Assembly: GCA_964582295.1 (NCBI GenBank)
Contig: CAZOQP010000001.1
Span: 9,588-73,587, forward strand
Reading direction: 5' to 3'
From: an uncultured Candidatus Saccharibacteria bacterium
GTDB lineage: Bacteria > Patescibacteriota > Minisyncoccia > Phycocordibacterales > Zambryskibacteraceae
Length of the DNA stretch: 64,000 bases
The notes below the pieces were generated by a model. That model searched no databases, was not told the origin of the DNA, and saw only the letters and a list, made by a program, of their open reading frames with translations. The translations under genes and the position numbers were made by a program. Below are positions 51,419 to 56,069 of the stretch, piece after piece. The number at the start of each line of letters is the position of its first letter. Positions within the stretch are counted from its first letter, which is position 1.

Positions 51419-51766
51419 TTATTTTTTTACTGCTTCAGCCGGAGCTGCCTTGGATGCCTGGGCGGAAGCTATTTCAGCTTCCTTTTTCTTGGTTTCCAGT
51501 TCCTTCTGCATCTTTCCTCCGTGCTTTATGAATTTGCGGGTGGGAGAGAATTCGCCCAAGCGGTGACCCACCATATCTTCCGTAACGAAAACCTCAATGT
51601 GTTCCCGGCCGTTATGGACCCCAAAGGTGTGCCCCACCATCTCCGGAGCTATCTGGCTGTCTCTTGCCCAGGTCTTTATCACTCCGGCAGAGCCGGGCTT
51701 TTTACCCTCAATCTTCTTGAGGAGTTTTTCATATACATAGGGTCCTTTTGAGGATGAACGTGTCAT
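51419..51766 (-). CDS. rpsS: 30S ribosomal protein S19 (C-terminal Lys/Ala-rich extension)
   Basis: S19 core ([13 protein letters not shown]...[35 protein letters not shown]). 115 aa. Confidence 0.9.
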
Positions 51767-51826
51767 TTTTGACAGAAAAAAGCTCGTCAGAGCTTGGCGA
51801 AATATTATATGAATAGGAGCATAGTG

Positions 51827-52714
51827 TCAACGGGTAGGTCTATTCCTAAAAACGGAGATTTTCTCCTTCAATTTATACGCATTCCCATGTCTCAATAGCC
51901 CCAGATAAGACTGCACCGTTTCCGCCTTAACATCACCATTTTCGAGATTTTTCATCATCCTTCGCTTGGTAGTGGTTCTCAATACGCGATAATCATGAAA
52001 ATGCACCCAGCCCAGGAAATCCACACCTGAAGCCAAGGTTTTAATGAATACCTTGTCCGGATGAAGAGTGAGTTTAAGCTTCTCTCCTAGATAACATACG
52101 ATATATCGTATGTTATCTAGGAGGTTTCCTTTGTCATGGTGGAGTATTACGAAATCATCTGCATAGCGTATGTAGTGTTTTACTTTGAGCGTGTGCTTCA
52201 TGTATTGATCAAACTCGTTCATGTAGACATTTACCAGAAGCTGGGAGGTGAGGTTCCCGAGGGGCAGTCCAATGCCAGAAGCAGTGCTTGAGAAGCTTCC
52301 TATGACCTTTTGGAGAAGCCACATGGTGTCCTCATCTTTTATATGCTTGTTCAGGATTTCAATGAGTATTGAATGATCAATTGATGCGAAAAACTTGCGC
52401 ACATCGCATTTCAATATAAAACATGTGCGTGTCCTGTTGTTTGAAACTTTATATGAAAATCTTTTAAATCTCTCCATCGCCTTGTGGGTGCCTTTAAAGT
52501 TCCGGCAGGAATAGGAATCGTGTATGAATCTTTTGTCAAAGTACGGATACAAAACCCTGTATATGGCGTGGTGGAGCAGTCTGTCCCTCACGCTCGCCTT
52601 GTGGATATTCCTCGGCTTGGGGTCCGAAATGTTGAAAGCTGAATATCCTCCATGTGTATATGTTTTTCCGGCCAAATCCTGATGCAAAGAGAGTATGTTG
52701 TCCATGAGCCGCAA
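51827..52714 (-). CDS. diversity-generating retroelement reverse transcriptase
   Basis: 295 aa. RT motifs 1-7 with IRYADDFVIL (motif 5) and the DGR-specific motif 4 variant LGNLTSQ (I/LGxxxSQ, in place of QGxxxSP). No maturase or endonuclease domain. Confidence 0.85.
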   Translation of the reverse strand: MRLMDNILSLHQDLAGKTYTHGGYSAFNISDPKPRNIHKASVRDRLLHHAIYRVLYPYFDKRFIHDSYSCRNFKGTHKAMERFKRFSYKVSNNRTRTCFILKCDVRKFFASIDHSILIEILNKHIKDEDTMWLLQKVIGSFSSTASGIGLPLGNLTSQLLVNVYMNEFDQYMKHTLKVKHYIRYADDFVILHHDKGNLLDNIRYIVCYLGEKLKLTLHPDKVFIKTLASGVDFLGWVHFHDYRVLRTTTKRRMMKNLENGDVKAETVQSYLGLLRHGNAYKLKEKISVFRNRPTR

Positions 52715-52826
52715 GCCAAACTCCTGAACATCCTTTCTGTTCCGCTTGCCTCTTAAAAATTCCCTCCACGCTTCAAGGAGATTGTCTAAAGAAATGATAT
52801 CGTTATAGGTATGAGAAAACTCCCCT

Positions 52827-53213
52827 TTGAAGTCCCCCCCCCCCGCAGATTTCAGTAGTCATCTTATTCCTGTAATCATAAAGCTTAAAGACCTATATGG
52901 CCTATGGCAAGGATATTTGGCACACTTTCCGAAGTCAAAACGTTTTACACTCGGTTCCAAGCTTGATGACCTATTTTTGAGCGCCATTGAAAATTGCTTT
53001 TTAGCTAGTTACTCTTCAGGTGAAGAAAAGAACACATATGTTGACCGCTCAATCTCACGAGTGGATCTCATAAAATTATTACTTCAACTTGCATGGGAAA
53101 CTAGAGTCCTTGATACGAACAAATATTCTCATTTATCCGAAAATCTATCAGAGGTTGGGAAAATGCTTGGTGGATGGAAAAGACAACTGACAAGAAAAAC
53201 TCCCCCGCGGTGA
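52827..53213 (+). CDS. Avd-like four-helix-bundle protein (IVS-encoded protein family, DGR accessory variability determinant homolog)
   Basis: 128 aa with a TTG start. The sequence pattern ...FPKSKRFTLGSKLDDLFLSAIENCFLASYS...RVDLIKLLLQLAWETRVLD... is typical of four-helix-bundle/IVS proteins. It sits 23 bp from the TR but on the opposite strand to RT, TR and VR. Confidence 0.7.
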   Translation: MKSPPPADFSSHLIPVIIKLKDLYGLWQGYLAHFPKSKRFTLGSKLDDLFLSAIENCFLASYSSGEEKNTYVDRSISRVDLIKLLLQLAWETRVLDTNKYSHLSENLSEVGKMLGGWKRQLTRKTPPR

Positions 53214-53236
53214 TACGGGGGAGAACCATAATAGTG

Positions 53237-53365
53237 GCGCACGGCGAGGAACCGGCAACGCTCATCCCACTCGTTGTCGTTCCAGTTCAGATTGAGCTTG
53301 CGCTTAGAATCGTTCACGTCGAGATACGGAACGTTGCGATTGTCGTCCAACTGCGAGACGGAGCC
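53237..53365 (-). repeat. DGR template repeat (TR), 129 bp
   Basis: Near-identical to 53706-53834. All 14 mismatches have A in this copy (minus-strand sense) and G or T in the other. Confidence 0.85.
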
Positions 53366-53612
53366 TTGTACGACAAACCATCCATACCACCACCCATTGA
53401 ATAATCCCCGGGTTGAATCTTATTCGTGACCTTTGTGTCACATAGTTTGTCGCACCAACTTTCTCTGGTTTTTACCAAACCCGGAAACTCTCTTTCGGAA
53501 GCCGTGGCCGCCGAAACTCTCATTACTCGGGCGTGCGAACAAGTTACCCAAAGCCGTAACCGTAGGTTTTTCACTTGTCTCAATTATTGTATAGAAAAAA
53601 TTTACATATGAA

Positions 53613-53642
53613 AACTCCGTCGGACAGCTGTCCGACGGAGTT
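53613..53642 (-). terminator. 30-bp perfect palindrome AACTCCGTCGGACAG|CTGTCCGACGGAGTT + T-rich tract, 3' of the VR gene
   Basis: About 60 nt downstream of the VR end. It could also be the hairpin/cruciform element that follows DGR VRs (IMH-associated). Confidence 0.6.
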
Positions 53643-53700
53643 GTTTCCAAAGCCCAAGTACCAAGGCCAAAAACGAAGCCAAAGCTCAAGGGCCCAAGTA

Positions 53701-54309
53701 CTACTTGCGCACGGCGAGGAACCGGCAACGCTCACCCCACTCGTCGTCGCTCCAGTCCAGACTGAGCCCGCGCTCAGAATCGTCCACGTCGAGAAACGGA
53801 ACGTCGCGAAAGTCGCCCAACTGCGAGACGGAGCCGAGAGCGATAATGGGAAATCTCCGTTGAACCTCCGGAAATGTTGCTCCGAAAGCCAGAAGTTCCT
53901 CCATGGTAGCCGGGCGCATTCCCATCTTGTCGATTTCTTTCTTCACTTCATCGGTCGCAATAACACGATTTAAGTGAATGAGTTCGACGGTGGTCTCCAC
54001 CTTACCCTTACCCTTTACAGGGAAGCGCTCAGTGGTAATATCATCGTTTTTCCAATCGTACCGGCCGGATGCGATCATCTCCGCGAGCGTCATGGAATAA
54101 TCCACGACGACTTTGAGAACGAGCGGGCCCAGGCCGAGGAAATCCCGAAGCTCCCCGCGGGGTTTGTTGAAACCCGTCGCGAGAGCTTCCAGAAAATCCG
54201 GCAGGATGCCGTCGGAGACCGCTACCGCCAACTGTTCCTTGCTCACCCCTTTCTGGTCAATGAGGGTAAGGATGTGTCCCGCCTGCGGCAGTGTTGCGTT
54301 GGTGCTCAT
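53701..54309 (-). CDS. DGR variable (target) protein, VR at C-terminus
   Basis: 202 aa with no signal peptide or TM helix. The last ~43 codons are the VR (...VSQLGDFRDVPFLDVDDSERGLSLDWSDDEWGERCRFLAVRK). The TR encodes the Asn-rich template version (DDNRNVPYLDVNDSKRKLNLNWNDNEWDERCRFLAVR). Confidence 0.8.
   Translation of the reverse strand: MSTNATLPQAGHILTLIDQKGVSKEQLAVAVSDGILPDFLEALATGFNKPRGELRDFLGLGPLVLKVVVDYSMTLAEMIASGRYDWKNDDITTERFPVKGKGKVETTVELIHLNRVIATDEVKKEIDKMGMRPATMEELLAFGATFPEVQRRFPIIALGSVSQLGDFRDVPFLDVDDSERGLSLDWSDDEWGERCRFLAVRK
53706..53834 (-). repeat. DGR variable repeat (VR)
   Basis: 129 bp matching the TR except at 14 TR-adenine positions (11 A-to-G, 3 A-to-T). Confidence 0.85.
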
Positions 54310-54520
54310 AGGGTTCTCCTATGTGGCGCTACCTTTAGGGTAGCTGGTTCGCTAAATGTGCGACCTTAGTGTCGCCATAGCTTTTAATCCTCCATCTTGA
54401 AGAGCTAAAAGCTATGGCGAACAAGTAGTTCTTAAGGTTCTTTATCTTTTTCCATTATACACCTATTGACATATTTTGTCAAGTACTTCTTGGGTACCAA
54501 AAAATAGCCCTTTGTTGAGC

Positions 54521-55227
54521 TGTTTTTTACATAGGCAAGACCTATGTATAATTAAGATATGGCAATTAGAGAAATCTCCTTTGCTCCTGGATGCTATTAT
54601 CACATTTACAATCGAGGTAATAGCAAGCAGAAAATATTTCTTGATAAGAACGACTATCACCGTTTCATTAAGCTCCTTTATATTTCAAACTCACGGCAAA
54701 ACTTTGCCATCAGAAACTTTTCCAAGAAAAATATATACGACGTTGATCGCGGACAGAAACTGGTATCCATGGGAGCTTTTTGTTTAATGTCAAATCATTT
54801 CCACATTCTTTTATGCCAGCCGGAGAATGGCGACATCAGCAAGTTCATGCAAAAATTGAGCACATCTTACTCGATGTATTTTAATAAGAAATATGAACGG
54901 ACTGGCGGACTGTTTGAGAGTAAGTTCAAATCTGAATATGTAGAGACCGATCGTCATCTGAAATACCTATTTTCTTACATACACCTCAATCCATTAAAGA
55001 TCGTTGACCCGAAATGGAGAGAAAAAAGTGGGAATGATTTATCGGGGTCAATGAAATTCTTGGAAAATTACAATTTTTCTAGCTTTGATGAGTACATTGG
55101 GAAATCCCGTATTGAACAAGTTATTTTGGATAGACAGGATTTTCCAGAGTATTTCCCAGCCGAAAAAATATTTTTAGAAGAAATTACTGAATGGATTAAC
55201 TTTACATAGGCAAGACCTATGTAAGTC
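54521..55227 (+). mobile_element. IS200/IS605-family Y1 (HUH) transposase gene of RAYT/TnpA-REP type, flanked by identical subterminal hairpins
   Basis: CDS 54559..55209 (216 aa) with HIYNRGN...LMSNHFHILL (HUH) and a downstream Tyr region (YSMYFNKKYERTGGLFESKFKS). Both ends carry TTACATAGG-caaga-CCTATGTAA (54521-54547 and 55201-55227). Confidence 0.75.
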
Positions 55228-55229
55228 TG

Positions 55230-56069
55230 CTACTTTTTCCCTACCTTCCTTCGCTTCACTATGTAAACGTTTGAGTATTTCTTGGCACGGCGGGACTTCT
55301 GGCCCTTACCTGTCGGCTTGCCGTGGCGAGTGCGGGCACGACGGTGACCTCGGCCGGAGCGGCCTTCGCCTCCTCCGTGCGGATGGTCAACAGGGTTCAT
55401 GGCAGAACCACGAACGGTAGGGCGGATACCAAGCCAGCGAGAGCGTCCGGCTTTGCCGAGGTTCATCAGGCGATTTTCTGAATTGGAAACTTCTCCGACG
55501 CTTGCCCATGCATTGCTGTGTATCTTTCGCACTTCAGTTGAAGGCATTTTTATATCAACATATTCCCCGTCTTTTGCTACTACTTCCGCATAGTTTCCTC
55601 CGGAGCGAGCTACTTTCGCCTCTCCACCTTTTTTAAGCGAGATGTTGTACACAAAAGTTCCAACGGTCAGGCGGTGGAGAGGAAGACGGTTACCAGGAAT
55701 TTCCGCGGCGGTTTCTGAAGTTACAAAAGTGTCGCCAACCTTTGCTGATTTAGGCAGGAGAACGTAGCGCTTTGCGCCATCGTGGTAAAAGACGAGACCA
55801 ATGTAGCCAGAGCGGTTCGGATCGTACTCAACGCTCTTCACCACATAAGGAATATCGAATTTGTCGTATGAAAAATCAATGTCTCGGAAAAGGCGCTTGT
55901 GGCCACCACCCTTGTGCTGAACGGTAATGCGTCCGTGATGGTTGCGACCCTTATGGCGCTTGCGGCCAAAGGTGAGTTTTTTTGCAGGCTCAGAGGCAGT
56001 GGTTACCTCCTTGTACGGCAAAACCGTCATGTGCCTGCGGGATTTAGTTGTAGGTTTAAAACTTTTCAT
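55230..56069 (-). CDS. rplB: 50S ribosomal protein L2
   Basis: 279 aa. Confidence 0.93.
   Translation of the reverse strand: MKSFKPTTKSRRHMTVLPYKEVTTASEPAKKLTFGRKRHKGRNHHGRITVQHKGGGHKRLFRDIDFSYDKFDIPYVVKSVEYDPNRSGYIGLVFYHDGAKRYVLLPKSAKVGDTFVTSETAAEIPGNRLPLHRLTVGTFVYNISLKKGGEAKVARSGGNYAEVVAKDGEYVDIKMPSTEVRKIHSNAWASVGEVSNSENRLMNLGKAGRSRWLGIRPTVRGSAMNPVDHPHGGGEGRSGRGHRRARTRHGKPTGKGQKSRRAKKYSNVYIVKRRKVGKK

Follow-up and report, generated by a model that had tools for sequence, protein, structure and literature searches.

The 64,000-nt stretch of contig CAZOQP010000001.1 considered here (the window; coordinates count from its first letter) contains a complete diversity-generating retroelement (DGR), situated between rplB (55230-56069) and rpsS (51419-51766). 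Read along the minus strand, the element comprises a target gene, the variable repeat (VR), a spacer of 337 nt, the template repeat (TR), a gap of 23 bp, an avd gene carried on the plus strand and the gene encoding the reverse transcriptase (RT). This DGR is an ordinary member of the elements of the candidate phyla radiation (CPR)/Patescibacteria, presenting the catalogued architecture termed B3, and, judging from conserved signals in the DNA, quite probably works as four compact transcription units rather than as one operon. Where the 5' ends of avd and the RT gene overlap, a simple-sequence tract is found that may, more tentatively, serve as an on/off switch. The coordinates of the features discussed below are collected in Table 1.

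Relatives of the element were gathered by scanning one genome per species for the RT. This yielded 80 loci, all in CPR/Patescibacteria metagenome-assembled genomes (MAGs), with RT identities of 63-73%. In each of the 78 loci offering enough upstream sequence, an Avd homolog was detected directly upstream of the RT gene and on the opposite strand; in none were the two genes co-directional. Likewise, in all 60 relatives with a callable TR/VR pair next to avd, the sense strand of the TR was that of the RT gene and the order was constant, namely, VR, approximately 310-400 nt, TR, avd (reversed), and RT. Architecture B3 is written as TR-(avd)-RT, with parentheses denoting the reverse strand, and makes up 90% of 126 CPR DGRs while being nearly absent elsewhere, according to the survey of Wu et al. 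(2018, NAR 46:11, PMC5758913). The window presents exactly this series, that is, TR, reverse-strand avd and RT, with no other accessory gene.

The same conclusion was reached when the element was compared with published B3 DGRs of CPR. As described in that survey and by Roux et al. (2021, PMC8144416), in whose work these elements correspond to clade 2, B3 DGRs share with the window the order and orientation of target/VR, TR, reversed avd and RT, short targets without recognizable domains and a GC-rich inverted repeat after the VR, with no difference in layout being apparent. The host lineage is shared as well, given that all 80 relatives belong to Patescibacteria/CPR MAGs. An earlier reading of the window from its sequence alone (the first-pass annotation) had deemed the placement of avd unusual. 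For this lineage, that view does not stand, with avd being divergent in 78/78 relatives and B3 having already been published as the arrangement of 90% of the CPR set of that survey. The orientation of avd alone changes nothing; it is the standard CPR layout. In the part of the B3 survey text that was consulted, promoters (the word has 0 occurrences), a head-to-head overlap and a repeat at the avd/RT junction go without mention.

The plus-strand open reading frame (ORF) lying between the TR and the RT gene is a genuine Avd gene. The encoded protein matched Pfam family bAvd (PF22296) with a score of 50.2 bits (gathering score 40; E 4e-13) and retrieved 166 homologs, with PF22296 being assigned to all 120 of those listed. 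AlphaFold modeled the protein, which is basic (pI 9.52), as a four-helix bundle (pLDDT 88.6; helices at residues 14-31, 36-61, 65-91, and 97-124). When this model was compared with the PDB using Foldseek, the best matches were to the IVS/Avd family, including bAvd of Bordetella phage (4dwl; TM 0.75/0.88, rmsd 1.6-1.7 A); the Avd chains of the Bordetella DGR ribonucleoprotein (8ub7/8ube) were also matched. In this respect, the first-pass annotation, which had described the ORF as encoding an Avd-like four-helix-bundle protein and ending 23 bp before the TR, proved correct, since the last base of the stop codon is 53213 and the TR core begins at 53237.

Were the ORF spurious, or its product an unrelated helical protein, then the true accessory gene would have to be sought elsewhere. 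In favor of such an interpretation, the match to NCBIfam model DivGenRetAVD (64 bits; E 1e-17) lies under the model cutoff of 80, and a search of PDB chains with the Avd sequence profile returned no matches at E <= 1. Because the profile reached no PDB chain, kinship with bAvd is shown via Pfam and the fold. By contrast, the Pfam score exceeds the gathering threshold, the 166 homologs include PF22296 in every one of the 120 listed, the predicted fold is that of bAvd, and the gene is retained at the equivalent place in 78/78 loci. Moreover, none of the minus-strand ORFs beneath avd gave any family match, and no competing minus-strand accessory gene, the existence of which the first-pass annotation had recognized as fatal to its assignment, was encountered. 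It is, therefore, exceedingly improbable that the gene is anything other than avd. Exact-protein look-ups found neither the 128-aa Avd nor the 295-aa RT on record.

Comparison of TR and VR across a core of 129 nt revealed 14 mismatches, each of which falls at a TR adenine when the minus strand is read (11 A to G and 3 A to T). Because all mismatches in the core coincide with minus-strand TR adenines, the earlier strand assignment, whereby the TR sense strand, the RT gene and the target gene are all on the minus strand and avd is opposite, is right, in agreement with the orientation of the ORFs themselves. Apart from these 14 adenine-specific differences, the VR presents no damage. The 20-nt GC-rich ends of the VR (53726-53707) and TR (53256-53237) are identical. 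As for the RT, the protein matched Pfam RVT_1 with 75 bits and contains both the DGR-type motif LGNLTSQ and the catalytic YADD sequence. The element as such shows adenine-confined TR/VR differences, the RT motifs, and a VR at the 3' end of the target gene with GC-rich ends and an inverted repeat downstream, all of which define a DGR.

Within the RT coding sequence, a perfect palindrome of 40 nt (52084-52123) encodes LLDNIRYIVCYLG. Palindromes are found at the equivalent RT position in L016 (16+16 nt, with different arms), L003 (12+12) and L061 (9+9), with CGATATATCG at the center. The RT palindrome is limited to a sub-cluster of the subclass to which the window belongs.

The target gene matched no Pfam family, yet targets homologous to that of the window (39-51% identity) are found at the equivalent position in nine relatives. 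The palindrome that follows the VR is the terminator of the target gene and/or the known GC-rich inverted repeat downstream of the initiation of mutagenic homing (IMH) sequence; Wu et al. (2018, PMC5758913) give such inverted repeats downstream of IMH for 34% of DGRs. Between the VR and this palindrome, the window contains a series of CTTGG/CTTTG motifs, spaced by 6-19 nt, mostly 6-8. In the relatives, these motifs occur 3.0 times per 80 nt after the VR, as compared to 0.5 times in a control stretch, and the series may be a protein-binding array. At the other end of the target gene, a perfect consensus sigma-70 promoter, TTGACA-17-TATAAT, is present on the minus strand (54482 to 54454) and is followed, in the 5' leader of the target gene, by an inverted repeat of 15 nt with a 19-nt loop (54372-54386 and 54406-54420).

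The spacer separating VR and TR was found to be strongly conserved when aligned with that of the relatives. Directly after the GC-rich hairpin of the target gene, a promoter scan detected a -10 box that matches the consensus at no fewer than five of six positions in 50 of 59 loci and that is TG-extended in 37 of them; the distance from this box to the TR downstream is 220-232 nt in most of the 59 loci. What follows is a structured leader. With an alignment of the window stretch and the homologous stretches of 56 loci as input, RNAalifold predicted 36 base pairs, 34 of which are accompanied by compensatory changes. In this alignment, 95.0% of cells were paired, as opposed to 69.8% in shuffles, and double-change cells numbered 591, as opposed to 162 +/- 16, with 0/500 shuffles reaching the observed value. 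When, as a control, the partners were slid, pairing fell to 37-54%. A helix of 12 bp (53455-53444 with 53379-53368) terminates precisely at the boundary with the TR. A search of Rfam with the window and 13 relatives returned nothing at gathering score, and membership of RT-7 or RT-9, suggested by weak matches inside the leader (19 bits only), was not accepted. The leader upstream of the TR is a well-supported RNA motif and would lend itself to curation as a new family of DGR-associated RNAs.

On the other side of the TR, two further elements were recognized. A short strand after the TR pairs with part of the leader. In a test taken from the same alignment, the mean energy of cognate pairs was -5.61 kcal/mol, as compared to -3.52 kcal/mol for non-cognate pairs, with 0/2000 permutations being as low, and covariation is clear, e.g., AAATGAAGCTA with CGCTTCATTT. 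Next comes a stem-loop with a U-run, in the loop of which sits the avd stop codon (53211-53213). MAFFT failed to align this variable stem-loop, and it was analyzed by anchoring on the U-run. In this manner, a stem-loop, mostly of 9-10 bp, together with a U-run (consensus GTTTTGTTTT) was found in 60/61 loci, with a mean dG of -14.1 versus -4.6 for shuffles and an inner stem that varies with compensation. Read on the avd strand, the shared hairpin gives way to an A-rich stretch and not to a U-run. When RNAalifold was applied to 250 nt running from the stem-loop into the sequence antisense to avd, no consensus pairs were found on either strand; in the 215 nt antisense to avd beyond the U-run, neither strand thus offers a consensus structure.

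These elements have counterparts elsewhere. In 207 of 278 Avd-containing DGRs, including those from CPR, Handa et al. (10.1101/2023.10.23.563531) described a putative Avd-binding stem-loop, most often of 9 bp, just downstream of the TR, as well as a duplex of TR-upstream and TR-downstream sequences, termed 'cPRT Stop.' The post-TR duplex of the window resembles the latter, and the window stem-loop fits the former. The stem-loop is thus a candidate Avd-binding hairpin and probably also the intrinsic terminator of the TR RNA. The TR RNA itself would be a discrete unit of approximately 390 nt, with predicted ends at approximately 53579 and 53190.

Comparison with the DGR of Bordetella phage BPP-1 (mtd-avd-TR-brt; architecture B1) is instructive in this regard. 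Shared with the window are RT motifs ((I/L)GxxxSQ and YxDD), an Avd four-helix bundle (see the match to 4dwl above, TM 0.75/0.88), adenine-specific transfer from TR to VR and a hairpin downstream of the VR. In addition, the BPP-1 ribonucleoprotein, as seen by cryo-EM, has both a stem-loop immediately 3' of the TR and a duplex between TR-upstream and TR-downstream sequence, as proposed for the window. By contrast, the avd coding sequence of BPP-1 lies upstream of the TR, with a spacer of approximately 140 nt after the TR, whereas in the window avd is on the other strand, between TR and RT. Furthermore, the window TR is preceded by the noncoding structured leader of approximately 210 nt and followed by only approximately 45 nt, including the U-run, and the window contains a repeat tract that BPP-1 does not. 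The bulk of the structured RNA, located 3' of the TR in Bordetella phage, appears to be 5' of the TR here.

At the far end of avd, the first codons of the RT gene seem to carry signals for avd as well. Upstream of its listed start, the RT frame encodes a conserved N-terminus, YNDIISLDNLLEAW, and the putative avd promoter/ATG region sits antisense within these N-terminal codons. Two residues before the conserved Tyr of the RT N-terminus, His is found in 54/75 loci. In all 54, that His is encoded by CAT, which reads ATG on the opposite, avd strand, while elsewhere in those same RT genes, CAT and CAC are used 608 and 419 times, respectively (59% CAT). Similarly, ATC is used for the first Ile of the RT 'DII' motif in 54/73 loci, as compared to 31% elsewhere, and the Asp, Asn or His codon before that Ile always ends in T. 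In this manner, RT codons spell TGnTAnnnT on the avd strand in 53/76 loci. The CAT and ATC biases show constraint at the nucleotide level in the first RT codons. The TTG codon at 52827 is probably not the native avd start, the clade's conserved ATG corresponding instead to that at 52811, which the C11 tract puts out of frame in this assembly. The geometry is consistent with an extended -10 element that would drive transcription of a leaderless or near-leaderless avd mRNA.

The four transcription units proposed above would be arranged as follows. The target-gene unit would end in the GC-rich hairpin. Directly thereafter, the extended -10 would start the TR RNA of approximately 390 nt, comprising the leader of approximately 210 nt, the TR, the strand pairing back to the leader and, finally, the 9-bp stem-loop with its U-run. 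Positioned on the avd stop codon, this stem-loop would play a dual role, serving as Avd-binding hairpin and terminator, such that TR transcription would overlap only the last approximately 25 nt of avd. The avd gene, with promoter and ATG written antisense into the first RT codons, would be transcribed convergently toward the TR RNA, with the two units meeting at the shared hairpin. Lastly, the RT gene would be transcribed divergently from avd, with the 5' ends of the two genes overlapping.

Several points weigh against such an arrangement. No RT promoter was convincingly identified upstream of the tract, where a search across the loci for a positionally conserved promoter gave no clear peak. 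Terminators relying on a U-run leak, such that some read-through antisense to avd and into the RT gene may occur. Bordetella phage needs approximately 140 nt of RNA 3' of the TR, a role that is presumed here to fall to the 5' leader. The 3' arm of the stem-loop and the U-run are, moreover, constrained also by the C-terminal codons of Avd (NKTP in close homologs). Finally, the frame states considered below rest on assembled consensus sequences of homopolymers.

Some of these same points could be taken as evidence for a single minus-strand transcript containing both TR and RT and running antisense through all of avd, with antisense regulation of avd or transcriptional interference as the outcome. 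TR, RT and target share one direction, termination at intrinsic terminators is rarely complete and, because no strong promoter was found between avd and the RT gene, the latter needs some source of transcription. Likewise, avd has no U-run after the shared hairpin, and therefore avd mRNA may run antisense into the TR. However, the TR-sense stem-loop and U-run are conserved exactly at the avd stop codon in 60/61 loci, the stretch antisense to avd is without conserved RNA structure, the RT gene has its own start signals adjoining the tract, and the conserved promoter and leader mark the TR as a separate unit. A single transcript hence seems improbable. The first-pass annotation had considered both possibilities. 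A TR-to-RT transcript antisense to avd over approximately 500 nt, as postulated there, is not indicated, given the stem-loop and U-run at the avd stop and the lack of conserved structure beyond. Its other suggestion, namely, that TR and RT are transcribed separately, agrees with the presence around the TR of a conserved promoter, a structured leader and a terminator-like stem-loop. Antisense regulation of avd, which it likewise raised, is conceivable.

The repeat tract found at the overlap of avd and the RT gene is the only G/C run of at least 7 nt in the 64-kb window, within which neither A/T runs of at least 9 nt nor long dinucleotide repeats were found. A G run of 8-13 nt is present at this junction in 64 of 80 sequences (79 loci and the window), while 9 more contain (GA)n or (GT)n of 12-26 nt, bringing those with a repeat to 73/80. 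Outside the junction, only one such run was detected in 688 kb of those loci. Across the aligned loci, what is conserved of the tract is its repetitive nature and not a particular sequence. The tract length, by contrast, differs between otherwise near-identical copies. In L076 and L079, (GA)6 and (GA)7 are surrounded by flanks identical at 400/400 positions, and among ten copies with identical flanks of 15 and 18 nt (the L020 group), G8, G9, G10, and G11 all occur. A metagenome scan with the window's own tract flanks gave no matches; the L020-group flanks were used in a second scan.

When translated in the Avd frame, the tract always reads Pro-Pro-Pro or, where a dinucleotide repeat is present, Leu-Ser or His-Thr repeats, and it precedes the conserved (L)LP(V/L)(L/I) motif of Avd by approximately five semi-conserved codons. 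The tract thus seems to form part of the avd coding sequence. The possibility that the TTG of the Avd 'LP' motif is the start codon, which would place the tract in the 5' untranslated region (UTR), was rejected, as TTG is found there in only approximately 45% of loci and the residues upstream are conserved. An in-frame avd start upstream of the tract is seen in 19/76 loci, while 55 loci have, on this side of the tract, no ATG other than an out-of-frame one. In approximately 24 loci, avd is without any canonical in-frame start.

The effect of the tract on the RT gene differs between two classes of loci. Class I accounts for most loci. Here, an ATG is available downstream of the tract and ahead of the conserved N-terminus, and for this reason the RT frame is unaffected by the tract. 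In Class II, comprising 16 sequences including the window, this start is missing; instead, the RT frame passes through the tract, which it reads as poly-Gly, with the ATG being situated on the upstream side. For all 15 scorable Class II sequences, the change in tract length that would bring avd into frame is also the one required by the RT gene, as compared to 2/8 in the Class I control (Fisher exact p ~3e-4, calculated by hand and only indicative, since related loci are not independent). Three Class II loci (L002, L007, and L054) are in frame for both genes. The window, by contrast, needs -1 for avd and RT alike. With 11 repeats, the ATG frames stop after 15 (avd) and 19 (RT) codons, whereas with 10 repeats, a 133-aa Avd (MRKLPFEVPPPADF...) and a 344-aa RT (MTTEICGGGDFKGEFSHTYNDIIS...) would be encoded. 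The upstream RT ATG is in frame only with G10, and between the stop at 52859-52861 and position 52714, no canonical start (ATG, GTG or TTG) is found in the RT frame.

Simple sequence repeat (SSR) contingency loci are known from other bacteria, as exemplified by poly-G tracts in genes of Neisseria and Campylobacter and by the (TA)n repeat that separates the divergently oriented hifA and hifB of Haemophilus influenzae. Two features of such loci are also found here, with the window tract being long enough to slip and lying within both the avd and RT frames, and with length polymorphism between conserved flanks (G8-G11; (GA)6/(GA)7) being seen among the relatives. As in contingency loci, the clade presents a G/C run of 8-13 nt or a dinucleotide repeat near the 5' end of a reading frame, the length of which differs among near-identical copies and for which all three frame states are seen; as with hifA and hifB, one repeat serves two divergent genes. 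Unlike those systems, the window repeat is found in the overlapping coding 5' ends of genes on opposite strands rather than in a shared promoter, and involves mutagenic retroelement machinery rather than surface antigens, and here the switching itself is hypothetical. In the literature searched, the coverage of which was incomplete, no paper linking a DGR to a repeat tract was found.

It is conceivable, with chances that fall somewhat short of even, that CPR B3 DGRs carry a stochastic on/off switch in the form of a slippage-prone C/G or GA/GT repeat in the 5' overlap of avd and the RT gene. The length of the tract would gate translation of Avd in most of the clade. In the subclass containing the window, Avd and RT would be gated together, because both frames need an equal change in tract length (mod 3). 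Hypermutation of the target would then take place in only a minority of cells, and the reversed orientation of avd would allow one repeat to serve both genes. A slipped-strand switch, although put forward with caution and with the switching of expression being inferred, is the most economical reading of the tract.

Alternatively, the tract may not be a switch at all, but rather a homopolymer miscalled by the assembler, a Shine-Dalgarno (SD) or 5'-UTR element for the RT gene or simply a Pro/Gly linker, with Avd and RT being produced constitutively via non-canonical starts or transcriptional or ribosomal slippage. This seems rather unlikely, although several observations favor it. In some 48 Class I loci, the G run precedes the RT ATG by 4-35 nt, such that the run could act as an SD sequence. 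Runs of at least 9 nt are prone to slippage by RNA polymerase, leading to some in-frame mRNA at any tract length. The in-frame fraction for avd, 19/76, is near the one-third expected were length irrelevant to the gene, and the window offers the in-frame TTG at 52827. On the other hand, because (GA)n or (GT)n replaces the G run at the equivalent place in nine loci, it is the repeat character that is kept, rather than a peptide or an SD sequence. Nor is (GA)6 versus (GA)7 between flanks identical at 400/400 positions a homopolymer error. Conservation extends to the residues that separate the tract from the Avd core, but not to the use of the Leu codon there as a start; nucleotide-level constraint acts on the avd ATG; approximately 24 loci offer no canonical in-frame avd start; and the avd and RT frames need an equal change in 15/15 Class II sequences, against 2/8 in the control.

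Less probable still is that the window DGR is a decaying pseudo-element that has lost both the RT start and the frame of the avd ATG, in which case the orientation and overlap of the genes would be irrelevant. The RT frame is indeed without ATG, GTG or TTG from the stop at 52859-52861 to 52714, a deletion of 14 nt relative to L023 removes the RT ATG used in Class I loci, and both ATG frames end early, after 15 and 19 codons. Yet, the tract aside, both ORFs are intact and retain catalytic and family motifs, and the VR differs from the TR at 14 adenines and displays no other damage. An equal arrangement of starts with matching frames is seen in 16 loci, three of which (L002, L007, and L054) are in frame for both genes, and a single contraction by 1 nt would restore both genes in the window.

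Table 1. Features of the DGR and its surroundings in the window.
Feature	Position	Strand	Remarks
DGR target gene, 202 aa	53701-54309	-	Listed ORF; VR overlaps C-terminal codons
VR	53707-53839	-	Direct repeat of TR at +470 nt
CTTGG/CTTTG motifs, ~6, phased	53645-53700	-	Between target stop codon/VR end and hairpin; conserved in spacer alignment
Perfect 15+15 GC-rich palindrome	53613-53642		Downstream of VR; TTTTC next on minus strand
-10 box TACAAT of putative TR-RNA promoter	53586-53591	-	Promoter scan; directly after GC-rich hairpin
Structured leader of TR RNA, ~210 nt	53370-53579	-	Covariation, RNAalifold
TR	53237-53369	-	Adenine-bearing sense strand is minus
Post-TR strand of long-range duplex	53224-53230	-	Partner is leader 53473-53463
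Stem-loop and U-run	Stem-loop 53223-53200, U-run 53199-53190	-	TR-sense; terminator scan; 9-bp stem
avd ORF as assembled, TTG start, 128 aa	52827-53213	+	Pfam, NCBIfam, homologs, fold
Simple-sequence tract, C11 (avd strand)/G11 (RT strand)	52834-52844		Inside head-to-head avd/RT overlap
Putative avd promoter and native start	52795-52813	+	Extended -10-like TGATATCGT 52795-52803, 7 nt, ATG 52811-52813
DGR RT	51827-52862	-	Listed ORF 51827-52714; conserved frame open to 52858; ATG 52862-52860

The surroundings of the DGR also deserve mention. The ribosomal protein genes around the element are otherwise all on the minus strand. The idea that a ribosomal-operon context is typical of the clade was rejected, as this context is seen in the window only and in 0/80 related loci. 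A transposase gene, like the DGR, lies between rplB and rpsS in the ribosomal protein operon (51419-56069). This plus-strand gene (54559-55209) resembles those of IS200-like Y1 and repetitive extragenic palindrome (REP)-associated tyrosine transposases, with its product matching Pfam Y1_Tnp (E 1e-10) and NCBIfam REP_Tyr_transpos (E 4e-12). Two identical 23-nt copies of the hairpin-forming sequence TTTACATAGGCAAGACCTATGTA flank the gene, at 54526 and 55201. At the end of the RT gene, a promoter-like sequence, TTGACA-17-TAATAT, is found on the minus strand (51830 to 51802) and could restart transcription of rpsS.

It is the repeat tract and the permuted layout of the RNA, and not the orientation of avd, that make this locus of interest. 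The DGR RNA of this clade, structured mostly 5' of the TR, provides a defined construct with which to ask whether cis-priming holds in CPR elements, with the Bordetella DGR, the only one studied biochemically and in which the structured part is 3' of the TR, as the contrasting case. Should the tract indeed be a switch, then no regulatory device would have been described for a DGR before it; it would confine a costly mutator to a subpopulation of cells and account for the frameshifted appearance of many CPR DGR genes in assemblies.

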